From a virus, in the IMG/VR virus record IMGVR_UViG_3300045988_043739, positions 1-44,247 of that record: a stretch of 44,247 nt of DNA. One strand, written 5' to 3'. Shown here in pieces: positions 2,943 through 34,441 of this stretch; the stretch's first letter is position 1, and every line of letters begins with the position of its first letter. The position numbers and the translations under genes are program-made. The notes below the pieces were generated by a model, which was given only the letters and a program-made list of their open reading frames with translations, had not been told where the DNA came from and searched no databases.

Positions 2943-3141
2943 TCCGGCGGTACGGCAGGTTTTGAACATGAAATCGCAGGGCATGACACCACAGCAGGCT
3001 ATGCAGGCGATGGCAAAACAGAACCCGCAGATCGCACAAATCATGAACGGCAATCCACAGCAGATCGCAATGAATATGCTGCGTGAGGGCGGTATCGACC
3101 CGCAGGCGTTTATGCAGCAGGCGGGCAATCTGATGAAGTAA
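2899..3141 (+). CDS. Met/Gln-rich small protein (80 aa)
   Basis: ORF 2827-3141. GGAGG lies 5 nt upstream of ATG 2899. Sequence is MMNMQMLMQAMTANNPAVRQ...NPQIAQIMNGNPQQIAMNML, with repeated NPQ/M-rich helices. Confidence 0.6.
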   Translation: MMNMQMLMQAMTANNPAVRQVLNMKSQGMTPQQAMQAMAKQNPQIAQIMNGNPQQIAMNMLREGGIDPQAFMQQAGNLMK

Positions 3142-3250
3142 ATATCCCCTTTTCAGTTTGGACGGAATCTTGATACAAAATCCGACGTTCTTTTGTGATG
3201 TTCGGAAAGCGTACGGTTCCGTTCAAATAAATCTGAAAAGGAGAATAATC

Positions 3251-4042
3251 ATGGATAACGATTTTGCAACCGGCTATGCACTCGGCAGTGACGGCAACAA
3301 CAACGGCAATATGTGGGGCGGCGATGGCTGGTGGGCCATTATCCTGTTTGCTATGATCTTCGGCTGGGGCCGCGGCGGCTTTGGCGGCTGGGGTAACAAC
3401 AGCGACGGCGCAGGGTATCAGGGCGCGGTTACTCGCTCCGATCTGTGCAGTGAGTTCAACTTCAACGACCTGTCCCGTTCCGTTCTCGGCATTCAGAACG
3501 GCTTGTGTGACGGCTTTTACTCCATGAACAACGGCATGCTGACCGGCTTCAACACGCTTGGCAGCGCGGTTGCTAACGGCTTCCACGGCGTAGACAACGC
3601 AATTTGTCAGCTCGGCTACCAGAACGCACAGCTTATCAACGGCGTAAACCAGAACATGAACACTGGCTTTAACGGCGTAACTGCTGGCCTTACTGCTCTG
3701 GGCACGCAGATGGCTTCTTGCTGCTGCGATACGCAGCGTCAGGTAGAACGCGGTTTCTGCGACACCAATTACAATGCCGCTACCAATGCGCGTGATATCA
3801 TCCAGTCTACGCACAGCGATACCGACCGTATCATTGCACGGATTGACCAGATGGAAACTGCACGTCAGGCGGAGAAGATTGCGGCGCTCCAGACGGAGAA
3901 CCAGACTTTGAAGTTTGCCGCATCTCAGGAAGCACAGAACAATTATCTGGTAAACGCTCTGCGCCCGGCTCCCGTTCCGGCGTTCCCGGTTCCGGCACCT
4001 TACCAGTTTTCCGGCTGTGGCTGCAACACCTGCGGCTGCTGA
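3251..4042 (+). CDS. Membrane-anchored Gly/Asn-rich, Cys-motif protein with coiled coil
   Basis: ORF 3158-4042. AAAAGGAGA RBS precedes ATG 3251. One TM (WWAIILFAMIFGWG), a CCC motif, a coiled coil (IDQMETARQAEKIAALQTENQTLK) and a C-terminal GCGCNTCGC. Confidence 0.7.
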   Translation: MDNDFATGYALGSDGNNNGNMWGGDGWWAIILFAMIFGWGRGGFGGWGNNSDGAGYQGAVTRSDLCSEFNFNDLSRSVLGIQNGLCDGFYSMNNGMLTGFNTLGSAVANGFHGVDNAICQLGYQNAQLINGVNQNMNTGFNGVTAGLTALGTQMASCCCDTQRQVERGFCDTNYNAATNARDIIQSTHSDTDRIIARIDQMETARQAEKIAALQTENQTLKFAASQEAQNNYLVNALRPAPVPAFPVPAPYQFSGCGCNTCGC

Positions 4043-9800: not shown

Positions 9801-12800
9801 GACCCGTGCGGGGGCTGAGACGGTGCAGACGGGCGTTCAGACTGCACCGCCGGAAATTACACAGCCGATGCAGGAAAACGCGCAGGGCGCGGCACAGCAG
9901 GCGGACATTAACCCCAAGCTGACAAAAGCGGAAGTGAATGCGGAGAGCTCGGTGGGCGCGGCGGAAACCGGATTTGACCCGTATTCCAAGATGGTCAATG
10001 ATTACGGCGCGATTCCGGAGGGTATGAACCCGGCGCGCATGGTGGATGTACCGCAGAGTACGAACGGCACGGACAGGGTAAGCAATGTTGCAAGAACGAT
10101 CATGGAAAGCGGCGTGACACCGGACAACCTCATTCCGGTACTGGAGAACCATGTTGCAGAGGGTTTGTTTTCGCATGATGTGAAGTCGCTGAAAAAAACA
10201 CTCAGCGGTGCGACGAAAACCATTCAGAAGAAGGGATGGCAGGGCGCGTTTGATCAGTGGGAGGAAGTGACGGACGGCCGCAGAGCCGTTACGGACGATG
10301 ATATTGCACTCGGTCAGATGATGTACACGGCGGCGGTCGAAGCGGGCGACACGCAGACGGCAATGAAACTCGCGGGTGATCTTGCAGTGCAGGGTACGGC
10401 GCTCGGACGCGGTGTAAATGCGTTTAAGCTGCTGAAAAAGACCACGCCCGAAGGTCAGCTTTACTACTTGCAGAAGGCTGTTCAGAAGATTCAGCAGGAA
10501 TATCAGTCTCGGTTTGATAAGCAGGCGGGAAAGGCTGCGAAAAAGCAGGGTGTTCCGGCGGAAGATATTGCGGACCAGTATGGCCTCAAGTTGAACGAGG
10601 ATTTGGTGCAGGAGTTTCTGAACGCGGAGACGCAGGAAGCACGCGACGCGGTTGTAGACAAGATTTACAATGACGTTGCGCAGCAGATTCCTAAGACGGC
10701 AGGCGACAGGCTGAACGCATGGCGCTATTTTGCGATGCTCGGCAATCCGAGGACACATATCCGCAACATTATGGGCAACGTAGCCTCTGCGGCGGCGCTT
10801 GATACCAGTCACAAGGTTTCGGCAGTCGGACAGAAGTTTTTGCCGAAGGAAAAGCGAACCCGTGCGCTGCATACGAGCAAGGCCGCAAAGCAGTTTGCCA
10901 AGGCGGACTATGCAAACGTCGAGACGGAACTCAGCGGCAATGCCTACAAAACCGAAATGAGCGACATCAAGCAGCGGCAGAAGCTGTTTCCGAAGCCGCT
11001 GCAAAAGGTGATGGACGCGAACACATGGGCGCTTGACGCGGAAGATCAGGTTTTTAAGAAGAAATCCTACATTGACAGCATGGGCAACTTCCTGACGGCG
11101 CGCGGCTGGGACGTGAACAATCTGACGGAATCGCAGCTGAACGAGGCGCGTCAGCACGCGATTCAGGACGCGAAGATCGCAACGTTTCAGGATGCGTCAA
11201 AGCTGGCGGATAAGCTCAGCGAGATAGAACACAGCGGCAAGGCATGGGGCGTTGCTATTGGCTCACTTGTGCCGTTCAAGCGCACGCCAATCAATGTTGC
11301 CAAACGCTCGTTTGAGCTGTCACCGGTCGGACTGCTGAAAGCAATCACCTATGACGCGGCGCAGGTCAAGAAGGGCAACATGGACGCAACCAAGATGATC
11401 GACCACATCGGACAGGGTCTCACCGGCTCGGGCGTTGCGGTGCTCGGCGCGTTCCTTGCAGCGCAAGGCATTTTCTCGGCAGGCTCGAGCGACGACGACA
11501 AGGAAGCAAACTTTGATGCGGGCATGGGTCAGCAGGAGTATGCAATCAACATCGGCGGCAAGTCGTATACCATCGACTGGGCGTCTCCGGCTGTTGTGCC
11601 GCTTGCGATGGGCGGCGAACTGTATGAAGCACTGCACCAGAAGTACGACGACGAGGAAACCGCGTTCAATCAGGCAATGGCAACGGTCAGCCGTATGTTT
11701 GACCCGATGCTCAATATGACGATGCTTTCCGGCATTGGCTCGACGGTTACGAGCGCGGCATACAACAAGAGTAATCCGCTGTTTGGCATTGCAAGCAACA
11801 TTGCAACCAACTTTGGCGGTCAGTTTGTGCCGACGCTGTTCGGTCAGGTTGCGCGGACGGTGGACAACACGCGCAGAACCACCTATGCGGACAAGAACAG
11901 TCCTGTTCCGTCGAGTGTACAGAAGTTCTTGCAGCGGCAGGCAAACAAAATTCCGGGACTGTCGCAGTATCAGCCTGCCTATACGGATGTATGGGGCAGA
12001 GAACAGAAGAACGGACCGGACAACGTGTTCGCACGCGCGGCGTACAACTTCTTCTCGCCGGGCTATCTGGCGGATGCAAAGGGCACACAGGCAGAAAAGG
12101 CGCTCAAAGAGCTGTATCAGGCAACCGGCGACAACTCTGTACTGCCAAGCAAGCCGCAGAAGTATTACAAGGATGCAGACGGCGTGAAGAAGTTCCTCTC
12201 TGCGTCGGAATACTCCAAGCTGACAAGCGAGGGCGGTAAAATCTCGCTGGATGCAATCGACAAGCTGACAAAATCCGAGGCATACAAGCAAATGTCGAAC
12301 GATGAGAGAATCGAAGCGGTTGCGGATATTTACAAGTATGCTAAGGATGTTGCGGCGAATAAGACATACGGCAAGGAGCTGGACGGCACGACGAAACTTG
12401 TAAAGGAAAGCGGCATGGAGCCGGGACTTTATTATGCGTACAAGGAAATGCAGTCCAACTTCAAAGCCTCTATGGAAAACTATGAGGCATTCGATCAGAC
12501 GTTCCTTGCGATTAAGAATGACAAGTCTCTTTCTGAGCAGGAGAAGAACAGTTTGTATCACAATCTGCTGATCAAGGGCAACGACGAGGCAACGTGGAAG
12601 AAATACACCGAGATCAGCGACAAGGTAACAGCAGAAGAATTTGTTGATGCGCTGACACAGGTAAAGTACATCAAGGGCATTGGCAAGGAAGAACTTTCGG
12701 ATGAAACGGGCGCTGAACAAGCTAAGGCGGAAGCAACCGAGTTTTCCAAGTACCTTGATATGATGGGGTATACCGGTGAAAAACGTGCAGCGCTGGAAGA

Positions 12801-28151: not shown

Positions 28152-28342
28152 AGCAGTACAGCGCGGAGATGCGGCAGTATCTGGACGAGATGCGGCGGTA
28201 TGAAAATTGGAGGTACGGAAATGACCGATTACGGCGGATATGGGACGAAACAAACTACCTCGCAGACAGTATCGCCCGAAAATACGTTAAAATCGACGAT
28301 CTGATTGAAGAACTGCGGGAGAATGGAATAGCATTAGCATGA
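28148..28342 (+). CDS. Hypothetical protein
   Basis: GTG start overlapping the upstream stop (GTGA). 64 aa. Confidence 0.5.
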   Translation: MKQYSAEMRQYLDEMRRYENWRYGNDRLRRIWDETNYLADSIARKYVKIDDLIEELRENGIALA

Positions 28343-28554
28343 AAAAGAAAAGCGAATGCGCTGGGTGCGCATACTGGCGAGTACTGGGTACGAGCCAAGG
28401 GTATAAGCTATGGGCGTGGCATTATTTGATCGACACGGGGAAATCGCGCGGATGTGAACCGGGTGTGGGTTGCGTCCGCAAGGCGGCTAAGATCAGCCGA
28501 CGCAGGCGATATACACAGCACGGCATGGAGGAGGTAGTGGCACACGACGACTAA
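28339..28554 (+). CDS. Small Cys-containing basic protein
   Basis: ATGA overlap. CAGCAYW...GCEPGVGC. Confidence 0.5.
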   Translation: MKKKSECAGCAYWRVLGTSQGYKLWAWHYLIDTGKSRGCEPGVGCVRKAAKISRRRRYTQHGMEEVVAHDD

Positions 28555-28600
28555 GGAATGGCTCAGACGAGGGATTGACCTTGAAAAGTCGATCTCGGCA

Positions 28601-28957
28601 TTGGAGGAAGCAAGAGTAAGGGCGTGGACGCGGGCGACAAGCGCAACGGCAACCATCAAGGACACGCCGGGCGGCGGCGGTGACGTGACCGCAAACAAGG
28701 CGGATGCATATCTTGCCCTGTCCGAGAAGATACAGAGAGAGCAGGAACGGCTTGCGCTGATTAAAGCCGAGATCATCAGCACAACAGCTAAGGTGCAGGA
28801 TGCGGCGCTGCGGGCGCTGCTGATCGAACATTACGTGAACGGCAGAACGTGGAGAGAGACTGCCGAAAAGATTCACTATAACGAGGACCATGTGCGCGGA
28901 CGGATGCACGTTCGCGCCCTGCGGGAAGTGGAGAAGTTATTAACAGATTGTGCATGA
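28601..28957 (+). CDS. DUF1492-like / sigma region-4-like late transcription regulator
   Basis: DTPGGGG...ERLALIKAEIISTTAKVQD...LRALLIEHYVNGRTWRETAEKIHYNEDHVRGRMHVRALREVEKLL. The frame is open from 28538 with a plausible N-terminal extension but no ATG/GTG. TTG 28601 is the first conventional start. Confidence 0.65.
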   Translation: MEEARVRAWTRATSATATIKDTPGGGGDVTANKADAYLALSEKIQREQERLALIKAEIISTTAKVQDAALRALLIEHYVNGRTWRETAEKIHYNEDHVRGRMHVRALREVEKLLTDCA

Positions 28958-28996
28958 ATCTGTGGAAAACTTACCACACTATACCACAAAAACTGG

Positions 28997-29005
28997 TGTT
29001 ATAAT
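28997..29005 (+). promoter_or_regulatory. Extended -10 promoter TGtTATAAT
   Basis: Perfect TGnTATAAT 40 nt after the regulator stop, heading the ORF-free region. Confidence 0.55.
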
Positions 29006-29252
29006 AGTATTGTGATAAAAGCTCGTAAGAGCAGAATCACGGAGTTTCGTTCCTCCATTTCTACCTAAAGTCCCGTTTTAAGCGGTGGGGAAATCCTGCC
29101 GCTGACCTGCTCCAAAGTCTGCATGAGGGCGGCGGAGCGCCTTTCGCGGAACGAAGGCATTGATTATCCTTTCTATTCTTTCGGCGTGTCTTTTGCGCGG
29201 CACGCCGATATGCTCCAAAGCCTGCATGAGGGTGACGGAGTAATAACATTTA

Positions 29253-29261
29253 TGCTACAAT
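29253..29261 (+). promoter_or_regulatory. Second extended -10 promoter TGcTACAAT inside the ORF-free region
   Basis: TG at 29253-29254, TACAAT at 29256-29261. Confidence 0.4.
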
Positions 29262-30040
29262 GAGAATGGAATGCGGAGCCTGCGGGCAACAGGCACCGCA
29301 AACATGCCCGGATGGCTGCGTGAGGTCGGACGGGTAACGTATGGATTAACCAAGGGCAACGTGGCGGACTTTTGCAAGTCTTGCATGGTGGACAACGTGC
29401 AAGTCAATCTGTTCCCGAAGCTGCATGAGGCGGAGGGAGCACAACGCCTCCAACGAGGACGATAATATTCTGACAGCTCGGAAAGACGAGCCTGTTTCCG
29501 AACGCCTGTGAAGCTGCTGCAACGGCTTTGCAGAGTTCAGCGGGTGCTTGCAGGCACGCCGCAACCGGGGTCGCTCCCCGCTGTAACCTAACAAGGGAAT
29601 CAGCCGGATTACGCACCGATAGAGACGCGTGACACGACGGACAGAGACGCCGAACAGCCTATATCGAGAGGGCGAGTGCTACTGGATAAGCACTCACACG
29701 GACTTAGTGAGCCGAGAGCAAAACACCAGTTTGCTAACAAAGTTACAAAGCCGATACGGCGCTTTCGGGTGGCTAAGTACACGCCACGAAAGAGCACCAG
29801 TCTGTTTATCTCTTGCAATAAACAACCTAATCATCAGGACGGAAACACAAGTAAACTTGCGAAAGTGAGGTTATTACCTCTCTGGATTTCATACAACCGT
29901 TCTGGACAGCTGAGAGATCACCGGTAAAAGCCCGGCGTTCAGACGCGACGATAGCGTTCATACCTCCCTGTGGAGGTATACCGGTTTGCATAGTTGCTGG
30001 AAGCGGGTGCGAGCCCTGCAAAACCGAAACAGTCGTATAA

Positions 30041-30086
30041 TGACAAACCCCGCTCACCTTATGGCTTTGGTGAGCGGGGTTTGTCA
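30041..30086. terminator. 18-bp perfect hairpin between convergent units (bidirectional terminator candidate)
   Basis: TGACAAACCCCGCTCACC-(10 nt)-GGTGAGCGGGGTTTGTCA. The U-tracts on both sides are only modest. Confidence 0.6.
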
Positions 30087-30092
30087 TGCTAT

Positions 30093-30782
30093 TTAGAAAA
30101 TACTCCGATAGTCGCAAAAGTTCAATGCTTCGGCGATCTTCTCGCGGTAATTTTCGCCTGCTTCGTAGGCGGTGATCTTGCCGGTTTCGATCTGTTGCAG
30201 GGTTTGAACTGGAATGCCGGTTGCGTCTGCAAGCTGCTGCTGGGTCAAACCTGCGGCTTCGCGGATATCTGCAACGGAGATTTTGCCTTTTGGCCACTTG
30301 TCCCCGTGTGCCTTATCCATGACCTCGCCGACCTTGTAAATGTGGGCACGTTCCATGCGTCGGCCGCCGCCCTCGTTCGGGATGGAGAAGAAGATACCGG
30401 AATCAATCGCGGACTGAAAAGCGGATTCGAGGTTTTCGCCGTGCTCGCGCAGGCTGGCCGGTGTGCCCACAGTGACGGGCACCATGCAAATATTACCGTC
30501 GTGCGCGTCATAGTCACCGTAGAATGCCGGTGTTGTGTTGCGGTAGCCACTGCAATTACAGTGACCGTAATGCACACCGTCCGGCACCTCGATAAGCACA
30601 CGACGCAGGGCGATATAGCTACCGTATGTGTCCCAACCGAGCTTGCCAATCTGGCGATCGGATTCCACGCTATCCTCTGTAATGATAAAAGCGTCATACT
30701 CCTTGACGGGATAGTTCGGTGTAGATTTTGCCTCGTTGAGGCGTTCGGCTGGCTGACAAAACAGGGTAAGAGTTGCTAACAT
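30093..30782 (-). CDS. Unknown 165-aa domain fused to C-terminal XRE-type HTH (229 aa)
   Basis: ORF 30093-30911. ATG 30782 has GGAGGA 7 nt upstream. C-terminal ISVADIREAAGLTQQQLADATGIPVQTLQQIETGK. The N-terminal domain contains HYGHCNCSGY. Confidence 0.7.
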   Translation of the reverse strand: MLATLTLFCQPAERLNEAKSTPNYPVKEYDAFIITEDSVESDRQIGKLGWDTYGSYIALRRVLIEVPDGVHYGHCNCSGYRNTTPAFYGDYDAHDGNICMVPVTVGTPASLREHGENLESAFQSAIDSGIFFSIPNEGGGRRMERAHIYKVGEVMDKAHGDKWPKGKISVADIREAAGLTQQQLADATGIPVQTLQQIETGKITAYEAGENYREKIAEALNFCDYRSIF

Positions 30783-30934
30783 GGTGAGTTCCTCCTTCGG
30801 TTTGTTGGGTATAAGTGTATCATAATGTAAGTCCGATATGCAGGACTTTAGTTTGCGCTGTTGTGCTAATTGTACCCCGATGTGCGGGGTAGTGTCAATA
30901 TGTTCCGCCACAGGTGCGTGAGCCGGGCGGGAGA

Positions 30935-31102
30935 TTAAACAATTTCAAAACTGACACCCTCAATGAATAAGATAGTACCGTATCCGGGAAGAAATGCACA
31001 ACGGCGTCCAACCCATTCCGGGTGATTACCTTGGTAATCCTGATAGGTGGATTTGTAGTCGTTGCCGATGCGGTCGTATTCTGCTTTTGTGATGCGTACC
31101 AT
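30935..31102 (-). CDS. Hypothetical 55-aa protein (below ORF-track cutoff)
   Basis: AAAGGA RBS. Translation MVRITKAEYDRIGNDYKSTYQDYQGNHPEWVGRRCAFLPGYGTILFIEGVSFEIV. It fills the gap between the two flanking minus-strand genes. Confidence 0.5.
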   Translation of the reverse strand: MVRITKAEYDRIGNDYKSTYQDYQGNHPEWVGRRCAFLPGYGTILFIEGVSFEIV

Positions 31103-31146
31103 GGTAAATCCTTTCTGCCCTCGTTACCTCCGGGGCGGGTGGTTGG

Positions 31147-31380
31147 TTAGTTCCAGCGGTTAAAGTCGAATAGGTCGCTATCAGGAAATGCGGCGTTGAG
31201 AGTATCGCCTTTGTTGGTGACGGCCTCGTAACGATCGAGACAGGAAAGCCAGTTTTCGGCAGCTTGCTGCTCGGTGATGCGGTAGATACGATTAAGGGTG
31301 ATATAACCATCGCCTGCGGATGCGTACTTGTTGCCGATGACTGCGTTCTGCTTGGTGAGGATTGGGTAATTGGTTTTCAT
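31147..31380 (-). CDS. Hypothetical 77-aa protein
   Basis: ORF 31147-31395. ATG 31380 has GGAGGT 8 nt upstream. Confidence 0.6.
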   Translation of the reverse strand: MKTNYPILTKQNAVIGNKYASAGDGYITLNRIYRITEQQAAENWLSCLDRYEAVTNKGDTLNAAFPDSDLFDFNRWN

Positions 31381-31443
31381 GGTGTGTACCTCCAAATTAA
31401 AATTTATGGCTGCGGGCTTTAAGGGTGAACCCGCGAGAACCTT

Positions 31444-31908
31444 TTAAGCGCCGATCGTGCCGAACTGCTGATACAAGTAAATGTACTTAGCAAGTTCTTT
31501 CGCTCCGCCAATGGCAGTGCAGCGGCTTTTGCTGTCGTGCAGACGGTAGTCATAGTACAGGAGACCGGGGCGAACCGTTACGATATCCTCGGCACTTCTG
31601 AGCACCTTTTCCGCCTCGTCGATGTACTCGGCGGATACATCATCAAAGAGGCCGTACTCGTAATCGACGAACATATAAAAGTTGCCGCCTGCGAGGATTT
31701 CACCGGTGCGCTCGTCGCGGTCGATCTCGTCCCAGTGCATGAGCAGCTTTTCAACGTCGCTGCGCTTAACGGTCGGGTCCTTGATCGTAACATGTGCGCT
31801 GGTGCTGTATCCGCAATCCTTAACGGATACCTTGAAGGACTTGGTGTTGTAGCCTGCGGCTTTCAGTTCGCGCTTGATTGCTGCGTTGGTTTCTCGGTTA
31901 GTTAACAT
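31444..31908 (-). CDS. LPD29-like domain protein (tentative), 154 aa
   Basis: TNAAIKRELKAAGYNTKSFKVSVKDCGYSTSAHVTIKDPTVKRSDVEKLL is reminiscent of a domain seen in polyvalent proteins of conjugative elements and phages (from memory). Confidence 0.65.
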   Translation of the reverse strand: MLTNRETNAAIKRELKAAGYNTKSFKVSVKDCGYSTSAHVTIKDPTVKRSDVEKLLMHWDEIDRDERTGEILAGGNFYMFVDYEYGLFDDVSAEYIDEAEKVLRSAEDIVTVRPGLLYYDYRLHDSKSRCTAIGGAKELAKYIYLYQQFGTIGA

Positions 31909-31956
31909 ATTGATTACTTCCTTTCGGTGTTTGGTGTTTTCCTTTGCTGTGATTAC

Positions 31957-31985
31957 ATTGTACTATGAGTTAACTCATAAGTCAA
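31957..31985 (-). promoter_or_regulatory. Leftward promoter TTGACT-17-TACAAT with a palindromic operator filling the spacer
   Basis: Minus strand: TTGACT (31980-31985), a 17-nt spacer holding the 16-bp palindrome TATGAGTTAACTCATA plus 1 nt, TACAAT (31957-31962). Confidence 0.65.
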
Positions 31986-32045
31986 CAGGGAATGATACAC
32001 AAAAGTTAACTCATAAATTTAGTGATATTTGTGAGTACACTCATA
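31964..32045. promoter_or_regulatory. Three related operator sites (G)AGT(T/A)(A/C)ACTCATAA
   Basis: TATGAGTTAACTCATA at 31964-31979 (perfect palindrome), AGTTAACTCATA at 32004-32015, TGAGTACACTCATA at 32032-32045. Confidence 0.6.
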
Positions 32046-32054
32046 AGCGATATG

Positions 32055-32063
32055 TGTTATACT
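32055..32063 (+). promoter_or_regulatory. Rightward extended -10 promoter TGtTATACT
   Basis: TG at 32055-32056, TATACT at 32058-32063. The third operator overlaps its -35 position. Confidence 0.45.
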
Positions 32064-32096
32064 GTTTGTATCTATATAAGATATGGAGGGGAACAC

Positions 32097-32285
32097 ATGG
32101 CAGGAGATTACAAGGGCACGGACGCGCAGAAAAAAGCCGTCAAAGAATACCAGAAGACAAGAGACGCTATTATGCTGAGACCCAGCAAGGCAGACGGTAC
32201 GCAGATCAGGCAGGCCGCGGCCGATGCGGGTAAAAGCGTACAGGCGTATATCTTGCAGGCAGTGCGTGAGTATATGAACAAGTGA
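32097..32285 (+). CDS. Ribbon-helix-helix (CopG/Arc-like) protein, 62 aa
   Basis: ORF 32022-32285. GGAGGGG RBS before ATG 32097. AIMLRPSKADGTQIRQAAADAGKSVQAYILQAVREYM fits a beta-strand plus two helices. Confidence 0.55.
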   Translation: MAGDYKGTDAQKKAVKEYQKTRDAIMLRPSKADGTQIRQAAADAGKSVQAYILQAVREYMNK

Positions 32286-32307
32286 CAACATATTGTAGGC
32301 AGACAAA

Positions 32308-32338
32308 AGCCGCTCCAAGTAACCGGGGCGGCTTTTTT
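32308..32338 (+). terminator. Intrinsic terminator upstream of terS
   Basis: AGCCGCTCC-(8 nt)-GGGGCGGCT followed by TTTTTT. Confidence 0.7.
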
Positions 32339-32944: not shown

Positions 32945-34441
32945 GTGCAAGTTAATATCCCCAAGCGGGCATTCAACGCGGCGTATCTGCCGCTGCTGGA
33001 CGATGACGAGCACAGATATATTGTGCTGTATGGCGGCGCTGGCTCTGGTAAGTCTGTATTTGCAGCGCAACGGCTGGTTGTCCGCATGATGAGCAAGCCG
33101 CTGTGCAATGTGCTTGTGGTCCGCAAGGTTGGCGACACAAACCGAACGAGTACGTTTGCACTGCTGCAGCAGGTCATTAACGGCTGGGGCTTGCATAGCC
33201 TGTTTGATGTTACTGACCTTAAGATTGTATGCAGTCTGACCGGCAACGCCTGTATTTTTAAGGGTTTGGATGACCCGGAAAAAATCAAATCTGTTACATT
33301 TCCCAAGGGCGAGCTGACCGACATATGGATTGAGGAGGCAAGCGAGATTGCGGAAGCCGACTTTAACCAGCTCGATATACGTCTGCGAGGCAAGCGGATA
33401 CACGGACAGATTACGCTTTCGTTTAACCCGATCAACGTTCTGCACTGGCTCAAAAAGCGGTTCTTTGATCGCAAGGATGAGCGGGCGGTGACGCTGAAAA
33501 CCACTTACAAGGACAACGCATGGCTTGATGAGGACTACAAGCGCACGCTTGAGGGGTACAAGGACAGTGATCCGTACTATTACCAGGTGTATTGTCTGGG
33601 GCAGTGGGGCGTTATCGGCAAGACGATCTTCGACGCGGCCAAGGTCAACGGGCGACTTGCAGAACTGCGGGAGCCGGTTAAGCGTGGATACTTTGCATAC
33701 TCGACACGGTTTGACGCGGTATCTAATCAGGTGCGGATTGACGATCGAACTATTAAGTGGGTGGACGCTGACGACGGCTATATCTCGATCTATCAGGACA
33801 GGCGGGACGGCGTGCCCTATGTAATCGGCGGGGATACGTCCGGCGAGGGTTCAGACTGGTTTGTGGGGCAGGTGCTCGACAACACCAACGGGCGGCAGGT
33901 GTGCACACTGCGGCATCAGTTCGATGAGGATGTATACGCTGCGCAGATGTATTGTCTGGGTATCTACTATAACAAGGCGCTGATTGCGATTGAGGCCAAT
34001 TACAGCAGTTACCCGATCAAGGAGCTGCAGCGGCTTCGGTATCCGCGGCAGTACGTCCGGCAGACTGAGGACAACTACACCCACAGACCCCGCGACAGCT
34101 ACGGCTTCAAAACCACAAGCGTTACAAGGCCGGTTATTATTGCCGGACTGGTTGAGGTAGTGCGCGAGAGCGTGGAGCTGCTGAACGATGCGGACACGCT
34201 GGGCGAAATGCTGACCTTTGTTCGCAACGAGAAGGGCAGAGCAGAGGCAGAACAGGGAGCGCACGACGACTGCGTTATGGCGCTGGCTATCGCCTACTAT
34301 GCACGCACACAGCAGAGCTACACCGAGGACAAGCCGCGAGGCAAGCGGGCGAAGTGGACGGATGATATGTACGAGGATTACTACAACGCCAACAAGAGCG
34401 GCAAGGAGTACCTATTATCTAAATGGGGCAATCCGTTTTGA
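32945..34441 (+). CDS. terL: Terminase large subunit (PBSX/Terminase_3-like)
   Basis: Walker A is YGGAGSGKS. The C-terminal nuclease region contains GAHDDCVMALAIA. GTG 32945 is preferred (AGGAGGTG 6 nt upstream) over the track start 32936. Confidence 0.9.
   Translation: MQVNIPKRAFNAAYLPLLDDDEHRYIVLYGGAGSGKSVFAAQRLVVRMMSKPLCNVLVVRKVGDTNRTSTFALLQQVINGWGLHSLFDVTDLKIVCSLTGNACIFKGLDDPEKIKSVTFPKGELTDIWIEEASEIAEADFNQLDIRLRGKRIHGQITLSFNPINVLHWLKKRFFDRKDERAVTLKTTYKDNAWLDEDYKRTLEGYKDSDPYYYQVYCLGQWGVIGKTIFDAAKVNGRLAELREPVKRGYFAYSTRFDAVSNQVRIDDRTIKWVDADDGYISIYQDRRDGVPYVIGGDTSGEGSDWFVGQVLDNTNGRQVCTLRHQFDEDVYAAQMYCLGIYYNKALIAIEANYSSYPIKELQRLRYPRQYVRQTEDNYTHRPRDSYGFKTTSVTRPVIIAGLVEVVRESVELLNDADTLGEMLTFVRNEKGRAEAEQGAHDDCVMALAIAYYARTQQSYTEDKPRGKRAKWTDDMYEDYYNANKSGKEYLLSKWGNPF

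Follow-up and report, generated by a model that had tools for sequence, protein, structure and literature searches.

OLE, GOLLD and ROOL are known large RNAs, each of which is now a target of structural biology. ROOL and GOLLD are located in phages and prophages; GOLLD is conserved in its 3′ region and less so in its 5′ region, sometimes with tRNAs in the linker, its expression is coupled to the lytic phase, and a ribosome pull-down has been reported with it (PMC12286853). Like the DUF3800 motifs, both RNAs are of unknown function (PMC5737381; PMC12286853). Here, we analysed a 44,247-nt viral DNA (IMG/VR record IMGVR_UViG_3300045988_043739, positions 1 to 44,247; hereafter the window), in which the gene-free interval 28958-30092 is very probably the gene for a ~1.08-kb structured non-coding RNA (ncRNA), transcribed from the plus strand and belonging to a family absent from Rfam 15. 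Like GOLLD and ROOL, it would be a very large, multi-helix, phage-encoded ncRNA, and it shares with GOLLD a conserved 3′ part, a variable 5′ part and an embedded tRNA-like element. Unlike either, its 5′ part is an array of repeated two-hairpin units, and its gene is tied to a dedicated regulator resembling sigma region 4 and to a promoter rather than to tRNA islands. At ~1.08-1.25 kb, it exceeds the typical length of ROOL (581 nt) or GOLLD (~800 nt).

Two genes flank the interval, 28601-28957 on the plus strand and 30093-30911 on the minus strand. A preliminary description of this DNA had called it poor in open reading frames (ORFs), not AT-rich and dense in helices, and each of these points held. 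The longest internal ORFs encode 83, 82 and 79 aa, and the GC content of 0.52-0.53 is similar to that of the surrounding coding DNA. Minimum free energy z-scores were −4.13 for 29006-29470 (equalled by none of 100 shuffles) and −6.56 for 29471-30092 (none of 20), compared with −1.32 for a coding control (33000-33600). Two longer ORFs reach the 3′ edge (29827-30297, minus strand; 29994-30779, plus strand), both as off-frame or antisense overlaps of the genuine minus-strand gene 30093-30911. Across 48 non-redundant homologues, a 3-nt periodicity of substitutions was missing and the length of 445 of 578 indels (77%) was not a multiple of three, from which we conclude that the region is non-coding and under selection. 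An intact protein gene at the same position, for which the related phages were checked, was found in none of them, with six lineages compared. The plus strand, proposed earlier from the promoters, is borne out by a consensus folding energy of −326 kcal/mol compared with −262 kcal/mol for the minus strand (64 kcal/mol better) and by abundant G·U pairs on the plus strand in the hairpin termed B below. We delimit the whole RNA to 29012-30092 by its promoter and terminal hairpin; it is conserved as a block.

Relatives were collected both by motif and by regulator protein. A two-motif pattern, with its parts 80-110 nt apart, occurs in 92 IMG/VR viral contigs, ~75 of which hold arrays in which 2-5 units follow one another every 84-115 nt. 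The block 28958-30087 is conserved in at least 50 of the pattern-matched contigs, and homology stops with the terminal hairpin. Identity to the window is 88-95% over the RNA body (29077-30087), even where the upstream genes share 69-81%; altogether, conservation of the RNA extends over more than 100 phage contigs and is often above that of the neighbouring genes. Searches with the regulator protein added a second family, represented by locus L005, at ~50% regulator identity, as well as more distant lineages (L188/L189, 66%; L195/L196, 60%; L190, 58%; L197, 57%; L191-L193, 38%). All lineages follow a common plan: regulator gene, −10 promoter, 5′ hairpin, UCCUCC, one to five units, 3′ domain and a GC-rich terminal hairpin with a U-tract. 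The family thus defined has at least six divergent lineages, temperate and siphovirus-like, drawn from IMG/VR viral contigs and metagenome assemblies. Three further loci with regulators of 35-45% identity (L194, L198 and L199) have a gap of 200-270 nt only and no units. Compensatory changes support the helices both within and between the six divergent lineages.

A blastn search of the region against 50,697 GenBank phages gave no match, and terL and regulator searches against phages recovered distant relatives only (30-50% identity), those of the regulator in Oscillospiraceae phages from human faeces. The strict two-unit pattern yielded four chance-like matches among species-representative genomes, all in unrelated high-GC metagenome-assembled genomes, and therefore identified no host.

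The main feature overlooked in the first reading is a set of four tandem ~100-nt units (starts of the common motif CTGC[A/G]TGAGG at 29100, 29203, 29297 and 29402; spacings 103, 94 and 105 nt). As repeat family D1, the units are 63-84% alike over their best-conserved 38 nt, with unit lengths of 94-112 nt. Each consists of a hairpin A, a 4-7-nt linker and a hairpin B. Hairpin A is free in sequence and is often capped by a GNRA or UNCG loop (GAAA, GAGA, UUCG). In hairpin B, a stem of 5-6 bp leads through a 3x3 internal loop to a stem of 4 bp, closed by the apical loop G-C-R-Y-G-A, giving the apex consensus C-U/C-G-C-R-Y-G-A-G-G. The inner C-G and U·G pairs of the 4-bp stem are invariant, barring one L188 unit with CCGCAUGAGG, in which the U·G becomes C-G. 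A model of hairpin B (R1), used for scans, found the four units and nothing else on both strands of the window. Unit 1 (29081-29141) has hairpin A at 29081-29103 and hairpin B at 29110-29140 (R1 match 29106-29141, 49.5 bits), and unit 2 (29183-29244) has hairpin A at 29183-29206, followed by hairpin B (R1 match 29209-29244, 46.4 bits). In unit 3 (29272-29338), hairpin A occupies 29272-29300 and hairpin B carries the apex CUGCGUGAGG (R1 match 29303-29338, 44.8 bits); in unit 4 (29378-29443), hairpin A occupies 29378-29405, again ahead of hairpin B (R1 match 29408-29443, 45.9 bits). Across 79 regulator-anchored loci, R1 gave 352 matches; the 300 matches listed are all on the plus strand, 115-575 nt 3′ of the regulator stop codon.

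To evaluate hairpin B, we used an ungapped, motif-anchored alignment of 68 distinct copies. Its cells were paired in 92.5% of cases (78.5% in shuffles), and the covariation score of 0.428 exceeded both the shuffled value of 0.20 (reached by none of 500) and that of slid partners (≤0.145); one pair occurs as all six standard pair types. Partners for the apex and known motifs for hairpin B were considered. Loop-loop kissing through CRYG, read by eye, was dropped, the L005 units with CACG having no CGUG partner, and so was pairing of the loop with the linker (GCAUG/CAUGC), which suits some units and not the L005, L190, U1 or U4 types. By inspection, the hairpin-B consensus fits neither a K-turn, a T-loop, an anticodon loop, a hammerhead nor a CsrA site.

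The number of units ranges from one to five among the relatives and changes by recombination between units, as seen when L171-L181 are compared with L005 (~11845-11920) and within the window-like family (family 1). Some L005-like RNAs have one unit fewer and a hybrid junction, while in many window-like relatives an additional unit (U0) heads the array, and other relatives contain just two or three units.

The array is preceded and followed by further conserved elements. Upstream, the 5′ hairpin P0 (29011-29041; outer stem 29011-16/29036-41, inner stem 29021-24/29029-32, GUAA loop) changes its sequence and keeps its pairing across lineages, both in the outer stem (GUGAU/AUCAC, GUGG/CCAC, AUGGAU/AUCCAU) and in the inner one (GCUC/GAGC, GCCC/GGGC, GCUCC/GGAGC, GCAC/GUGC, GCCCC/GGGGC). 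It is followed by the anti-Shine-Dalgarno-like UUCCUCC (29050-29056), whose UCCUCC core is invariant in all lineages. Downstream of unit 4 lies a second type of module (29466-29491), composed of UAUUCUGAC, a stem strand, the GGAAAGAC loop region and the other strand, whose stem (29476-80/29487-91) covaries. This UCUGAC/GAAAGA hairpin is present once in the window, twice in L005 and three times in L197.

The remaining ~600 nt form a conserved multi-helix 3′ domain. We aligned 20 sequences from five lineages (16 diverse family-1 sequences plus L188, L190, L195 and L197) and predicted the structure with RNAalifold on the same alignment on which it was tested; 54 of its 121 pairs showed changes on both sides, compared with 17.3 ± 2.8 in shuffled alignments (reached in none of 300), and 96.6% of cells were paired, compared with ~40% in slid controls. 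The covariation among homologues for which a check had been proposed is therefore strong in both hairpin B and the 3′ domain, and the four helices named in the preliminary description were all recovered in the consensus fold of 16 relatives. The central core (29492-29720) includes a segment that is 99% conserved within the family (29540-29590) and two stems with compensatory changes, in seven of ten pairs of 29507-16/29523-32 and in five of nine pairs of 29540-48/29553-62. The 3′-terminal subdomain (29905-29979) carries CCGG-uaaaagc-CCGG, GACGC/GCGUU and AUACCUCC/GGAGGUAU hairpins, and blocks homologous to it also occur in the second family (L005).

Directly thereafter, a tRNA-like minihelix (29982-30026) combines an acceptor-like stem (29982-88/30020-26) with a T-like stem (30003-07/30015-19). 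In general form it joins an outer stem of 7 bp and, across a linker, an inner stem of 5 bp with the 7-nt loop U-[G/U]-C-R-A-N-N, the 3′ strand of the outer stem abutting the inner stem, which is the acceptor/T-arm geometry of tRNA; in the window, the linker measures 14 nt and the T-loop-like sequence reads UGCGAGC. The pattern has a sole match on both strands of the window, with 0.54 expected, and is found once per element in all lineages examined, 90-135 nt from the 3′ end of the RNA. The outer stems differ in sequence (CGGUUUG, GCGGCAC, GCAGCC-N, CGGCCCU, GGGGACA, CCCCCUC) and all pair. In its placement near the 3′ end of a long RNA, the minihelix resembles the tRNA-like domain of tmRNA, MALAT1-mascRNA and viral tRNA-like structures. 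Unlike tRNA, it has no D arm, anticodon arm or encoded CCA, and its strands are local to one region, whereas tmRNA pairs its 5′ and 3′ ends. ARAGORN found no tRNA or tmRNA gene in the window and six relatives, and the Rfam tRNA and tmRNA models did not match the window. ROOL and GOLLD are often encoded beside tRNA islands; the window offers a phage context with integrase, terminase and tail genes, and in place of tRNA genes has just the internal tRNA-like minihelix.

The RNA closes with a perfect hairpin on both strands (30040-30087). Described earlier as 18 bp at 30041-30086, it is real but one pair longer, with 19-bp arms (30040-30058/30069-30087) and a 10-nt loop. Its 5′ flank is A-rich and its 3′ flank U-rich, with UUUGU within the end of the stem and UAUUU once the stem is complete. 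It shows compensatory changes and is predicted to end both the RNA and the convergent gene 30093-30911 as a bidirectional, terminator-like element. The terminal hairpins of the relatives have clearer U-tracts, such as GGUGCUUUUGCUU in L005.

We then compared the RNA with known families. No Rfam 15 model matched the window at gathering thresholds (cmscan), and for 28850-30200 at E-values up to 10 we obtained only spurious miRNA and ohsC matches on the terminal hairpin, with none to group I or II introns or self-cleaving ribozymes. ROOL (RF03087) and GOLLD (RF01998) matched neither the window nor L005, L188, L190, L191 or L193. Comparison with all Rfam models thus excludes membership in ROOL, GOLLD, group I/II introns and known ribozymes. 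The preliminary description had proposed a phage-encoded large ncRNA of the ROOL/GOLLD kind or of a new class; given no Rfam match, strong covariation and no protein gene in the relatives, the latter branch is supported. Parts of the RNA may already be included, without a name, among the 10,006 models of a catalogue of candidate viral RNAs (Fremin et al. 2023; PMC10690425).

The sole Rfam match among the relatives was to DUF3800-VIII RNA (RF03075), a motif described by Weinberg et al. (2017). It is full-length (L191 3383-3448; 62.2 bits, cut-off 40.2), occupies exactly the hairpin-A position of unit 2 and has no counterpart in the RNA of the window. We do not identify the large RNA with this motif, since 62 of 63 other viral contigs carry it as a solitary, terminator-like hairpin with a U-tract and no nearby hairpin B; it is therefore a module borrowed by the L191 lineage and not the same family. 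Among described arrays, those of UG27 reverse transcriptases (RTs) in gut prophages hold variable copies of structurally conserved, sequence-diverse ncRNA units of ~135-167 nt, with single units gained and lost (bioRxiv 10.64898/2026.09.22.753630). The present units are likewise tandem, conserved in structure, diverse in sequence and variable in copy number, but they measure ~100 nt, differ in structure, are fused to a large conserved 3′ domain and are accompanied by no RT, sORF or bORF gene among the window genes tested. A ToxIN-like type III system was also considered and rejected, the units being too long and dissimilar and the next genes lying on the opposite strand with helix-turn-helix (HTH) matches only.

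The gene immediately upstream of the RNA (28601-28957, plus strand) encodes a putative late regulator of the RinA/DUF1492 type that resembles sigma region 4, as judged from weak profile matches and an AlphaFold2 (AF2) fold. It weakly matches phrog_36 ('transcriptional regulator'), gives likewise weak matches to extracytoplasmic function (ECF) sigma factors in NCBIfam and reaches 20.8 bits against Pfam Phage_antitermQ, under the 26-bit cut-off. Pfam DUF1492 does not match it directly; a distant homologue (P0038, 35% identity) carries PF07374 DUF1492, weakly. The AF2 model has a pLDDT of 80, rising above 90 across four C-terminal helices, and Foldseek placed it with the −35-binding sigma-4 domains of ECF sigma factors (3hug, 3vep, 2h27; target TM 0.65-0.78), with no Q antiterminator structure among the matches. 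A sequence search of the PDB returned nothing significant. A lambda Q-type module was accordingly rejected, the Phage_antitermQ score being below cut-off and the fold that of sigma region 4, not Q. Position and predicted fold fit activators of the RinA/ArpU/DUF1492 type, small sigma-4-like HTH proteins whose genes close the early region upstream of terS, the DUF1492 link running through the weak match of P0038. Homologous regulators begin ~20 residues earlier (MTAKEWL...), and 28541-28600 encodes a matching TTKEWLRRGIDLEKSISAL in frame, 3′ of a stop codon and without an ATG, GTG or TTG start; the upstream start may be lost, non-canonical or dependent on coupling to the upstream ORF.

Between the regulator and the RNA, the extended −10 promoter TGtTATAAT reported earlier was confirmed by direct reading (28997-29005, plus strand). 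The same spot carries TGnTAnAnT (mostly TGnTATAAT or TGnTATACT) in both families and in L188, L191 and L197, and TATAAT is kept in L190 and L195. The promoter lacks a −35 element, and the position is taken by a pair of direct repeats separated by one helical turn, ACCACA-N4-ACCACA (28973-28988, plus strand), presumably the operator of the regulator. The perfect copy is the single one in the window, and none was found near terS. ACCACA repeats are shared by the window-like family and L188, and the repeats read ACTACA twice at loci whose regulators are ~90% identical, AATACA/AATACT at ~66% identity and CTAATA twice in L191. Because the repeats change with the regulator subfamily and the predicted fold resembles sigma region 4, the regulator probably activates the RNA promoter, which would make the RNA the first regulator-dependent transcript and hence the first of the late phase. 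A second promoter proposed at 29253-29261 (TGcTACAAT) is present as a site in the spacer before unit 3, but reads cgCTACAAT or cgCTAAAAA in many relatives; not being conserved as an extended −10, it is probably fortuitous. Distant DUF1492-type regulators without the large RNA (L198 3405-3460; L199 3408-3445) have the same promoter grammar after their stop codon, with direct repeats 10 bp apart (ATGACA or ATGTCA, each twice) followed by TGTTATCAT or TGTTATTCT.

Directly 5′ of the regulator gene in the window, L005, L188, L190, L195 and L197 lies a gene for a 71-aa Cys/His protein with an Arg-rich tail (28339-28554, plus strand; motifs CxxC..YWR..CH..RGCEPGxxC and RRRR). It forms merely 28 clusters in a database of 5.8 billion proteins and has no Pfam match, and its AF2 model (pLDDT 52) is unreliable and unusable. 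In the protein of the window, Trp replaces the third Cys (AWHY instead of ACHY).

Downstream, the RNA had been placed between the late regulator and the packaging genes. The regulator side of this description stands, but the packaging genes are not directly adjacent: a minus-strand cassette (30093-31908), a plus-strand ORF (32097-32285) and a strong terminator (32305-32336), 32 nt 5′ of terS, come between the RNA and terS (32368). The first plus-strand gene of L191 and L192, located upstream of terL, has its GGAGG and ATG a few nt beyond the terminal hairpin and U-tract, and in L005 the late-region genes begin ~100 nt past the terminator. The slot after the RNA is a hotspot of variable, mostly reversed cassettes. 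That of the window encodes a 272-aa protein with a C-terminal XRE-type HTH and three small unknown ORFs, and is common to only ~9 of ~70 relatives; that of L190 (4853-7013) encodes an AcrVA2-like protein (PF26125) and that of L193 (2245-3080) a SocA_Panacea protein. In L193, which has the same regulator protein as L191, the reversed cassette is inserted between units 1 and 2 and splits the RNA into 1690-2250 and 3081-3710; unit 2 keeps hairpin B and has lost hairpin A, and the downstream part keeps the minihelix, with a weak tmRNA-model match (3543-3603, 21.7 bits) below the cut-off.

What this RNA does can be approached through lambdoid late transcription. In lambda, the Q gene lies immediately upstream of the late promoter PR′, and a terminator separates promoter and late genes; the put RNAs of HK022 consist of two hairpins with a short linker and render polymerase terminator-resistant in cis. 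The present locus resembles lambda Q/PR′ in having the regulator gene directly 5′ and the RNA directly 3′ of the promoter, and resembles the PR′-6S-tR′ late leader in having a terminator between promoter and late genes; by analogy of shape and position, each unit with its two hairpins and short linker recalls put. Unlike put or nut elements, with which it has no known sequence similarity, it has up to five units and a 600-nt conserved 3′ domain, and unlike lambda Q, its regulator resembles sigma region 4. We tentatively favour, at somewhat less than even confidence, an expanded RNA that serves as leader of regulator-dependent late transcription and helps polymerase past terminators. Hairpin-B modules emerging behind RNA polymerase would act on the elongation complex, either unaided, like the put RNA of HK022, or together with a phage protein, for instance the co-occurring Cys/Arg-rich one. 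Polymerase would then read through the RNA's own terminator and the terminator-flanked downstream cassettes into terS and terL, and the minihelix might be a signal for processing by RNase P/Z or for stabilisation that frees the folded RNA as a stable species. Such a role is suggested by the position of the RNA directly after the promoter and of the regulator gene directly before it, by the two-hairpin units, by late genes that start at the terminator in L191/L192 or ~100 nt after it in L005, and by the terminator before terS in the window. The cassettes just after the RNA (or within it, in L193) suggest, again by analogy, the morons that accumulate in an antiterminated operon. We regard this explanation as a whole (structured ncRNA, regulator control and leader role) as evenly poised.

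Several observations weigh against a leader function. Known antitermination RNAs measure roughly 70-120 nt, and a conserved 3′ structure of ~600 nt far exceeds their needs and is left unexplained. Among 65 relatives, 42 have mostly minus-strand ORFs in the 1.5 kb beyond the RNA; read-through would run antisense into the convergent cassette, and the RNA looks self-contained. With its near-consensus extended −10, the promoter may be active in the absence of the regulator, and because a second extended −10-like promoter, TGTTATACT, lies nearer to terS, the late genes may not need the RNA promoter at all. The Cys/Arg-rich protein is missing from the L191 lineage, which still has units, and no partner for the hairpin-B apex was found by eye. 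Finally, the terminal hairpins went unrecognised in a simple terminator scan, both in the window, because of the 10-nt loop, and in the relatives scanned. Scanner calls in L005, L191, L198 and L199 did not confirm the terminators read by eye, and L198 and L199 were therefore not relied on.

A rather more doubtful, though still serious, alternative is an autonomous, trans-acting ornate RNA, similar in kind to ROOL and GOLLD, that would be stable and abundant late in infection and forms an RNA-only assembly or a multivalent scaffold in which each hairpin B binds one copy of the same partner (protein, ribosome or RNA), the terminator simply ending the gene. Its own promoter and strong terminal hairpin, its conservation above that of the flanking genes and its ~1.1 kb with many covarying helices suit this proposal, as does the convergent cassette right after the RNA in most relatives. 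The variable 5′ part, conserved 3′ part and embedded tRNA-like element correspond to what is described for GOLLD, and the anti-Shine-Dalgarno-like UCCUCC and Shine-Dalgarno-like GAGG recall the GOLLD ribosome pull-down (PMC12286853). However, neither sequence nor structure matches ROOL, GOLLD or another Rfam family, and such an RNA would leave unexplained its fixed position after a regulator-specific promoter, the L191 late genes that start at the terminator and the L193 cassette that splits it; one to five units would also be awkward for a fixed quaternary assembly. The leader reading can be extended into a late-gene switch of more than 1 kb, an unlikely but consequential possibility, in which the activator fires the promoter, hairpin-B modules on the nascent transcript reprogram polymerase or ribosome, and RNase P/Z, directed by the minihelix, releases a stable ornate RNA. 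If true, the ribosome route would involve the anti-Shine-Dalgarno-like UCCUCC and the tRNA-like domain, late expression would cross terminators and inserted defence/anti-defence cassettes, and the RNA would represent both an RNA-based gene-control device of a new class and the largest ornate phage RNA to date.

Other explanations account for parts of the locus. An array of RT templates or type III antitoxin repeats appears very improbable: ToxI-type repeats measure ~36 nt, the array is just the 5′ third of a larger conserved RNA, and neither an RT nor a ToxN/AbiQ-type toxin is encoded among the window genes tested or in the Pfam gene tables of L188-L199. It would account for tandem units with conserved structure, divergent sequence and a copy number that varies between close relatives, the very terms in which UG27 arrays are described (bioRxiv 10.64898/2026.09.22.753630), but units of 94-112 nt compare with ~135-167 nt there. 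For an element acting as DNA, whether a pac/cos packaging site with terminase-binding repeats or an iteron replication origin, one could cite the position upstream of terS and terL and the ~94-112-bp spacing of the repeats. Yet pairing is conserved rather than sequence, with stems changing on both sides; the invariant and frequent G·U pairs would turn into A-C mismatches on the minus strand, which folds 64 kcal/mol less well; and the element stays beside the regulator, not terS, when cassettes are inserted. We hold this to be a slighter prospect still. Scarcely credible is a decayed pseudogene or unrecognised coding region: several ORFs of 60-83 aa exist, but codon periodicity is missing, 77% of indels break frame, none of the six lineages has an intact gene at the position, and a freely decaying region would not exceed its coding neighbours in conservation.

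Very few bacterial or phage RNAs have such size and covariation support. The architecture is new, joining a copy-number-variable array of conserved hairpins to a conserved core and a tRNA-like end. In contrast to ROOL and GOLLD, the RNA also offers a genetic handle: it has a dedicated regulator and a co-varying presumed operator, and it keeps its place at the early/late boundary of temperate phages known from gut metagenome-derived contigs, all of which makes its function directly testable. It further marks a hotspot for exchange of accessory cassettes (AcrVA2-like, SocA_Panacea), which is relevant to phage-host conflict.

Two minor observations concern sequences outside the RNA. Unrelated contigs matched by the motif pattern (L046 5035-5287, minus strand; L008; L021) carry CTGCATGAGG within 15-, 33- or 45-nt repeats, which are probably coding repeats rather than relatives of the large RNA. 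In the window, 31940-32336 forms a divergent control region with three TTAACTCATAA-like/TACACTCATAAG operators, the promoter TTGACT-17-TACAAT on the minus strand and, on the plus strand at ~32053, the extended −10-like TGTTATACT mentioned above; the ORF at 32097-32285 encodes 62 aa, possibly a ribbon-helix-helix protein as read by eye, with a weak MobA-like match.

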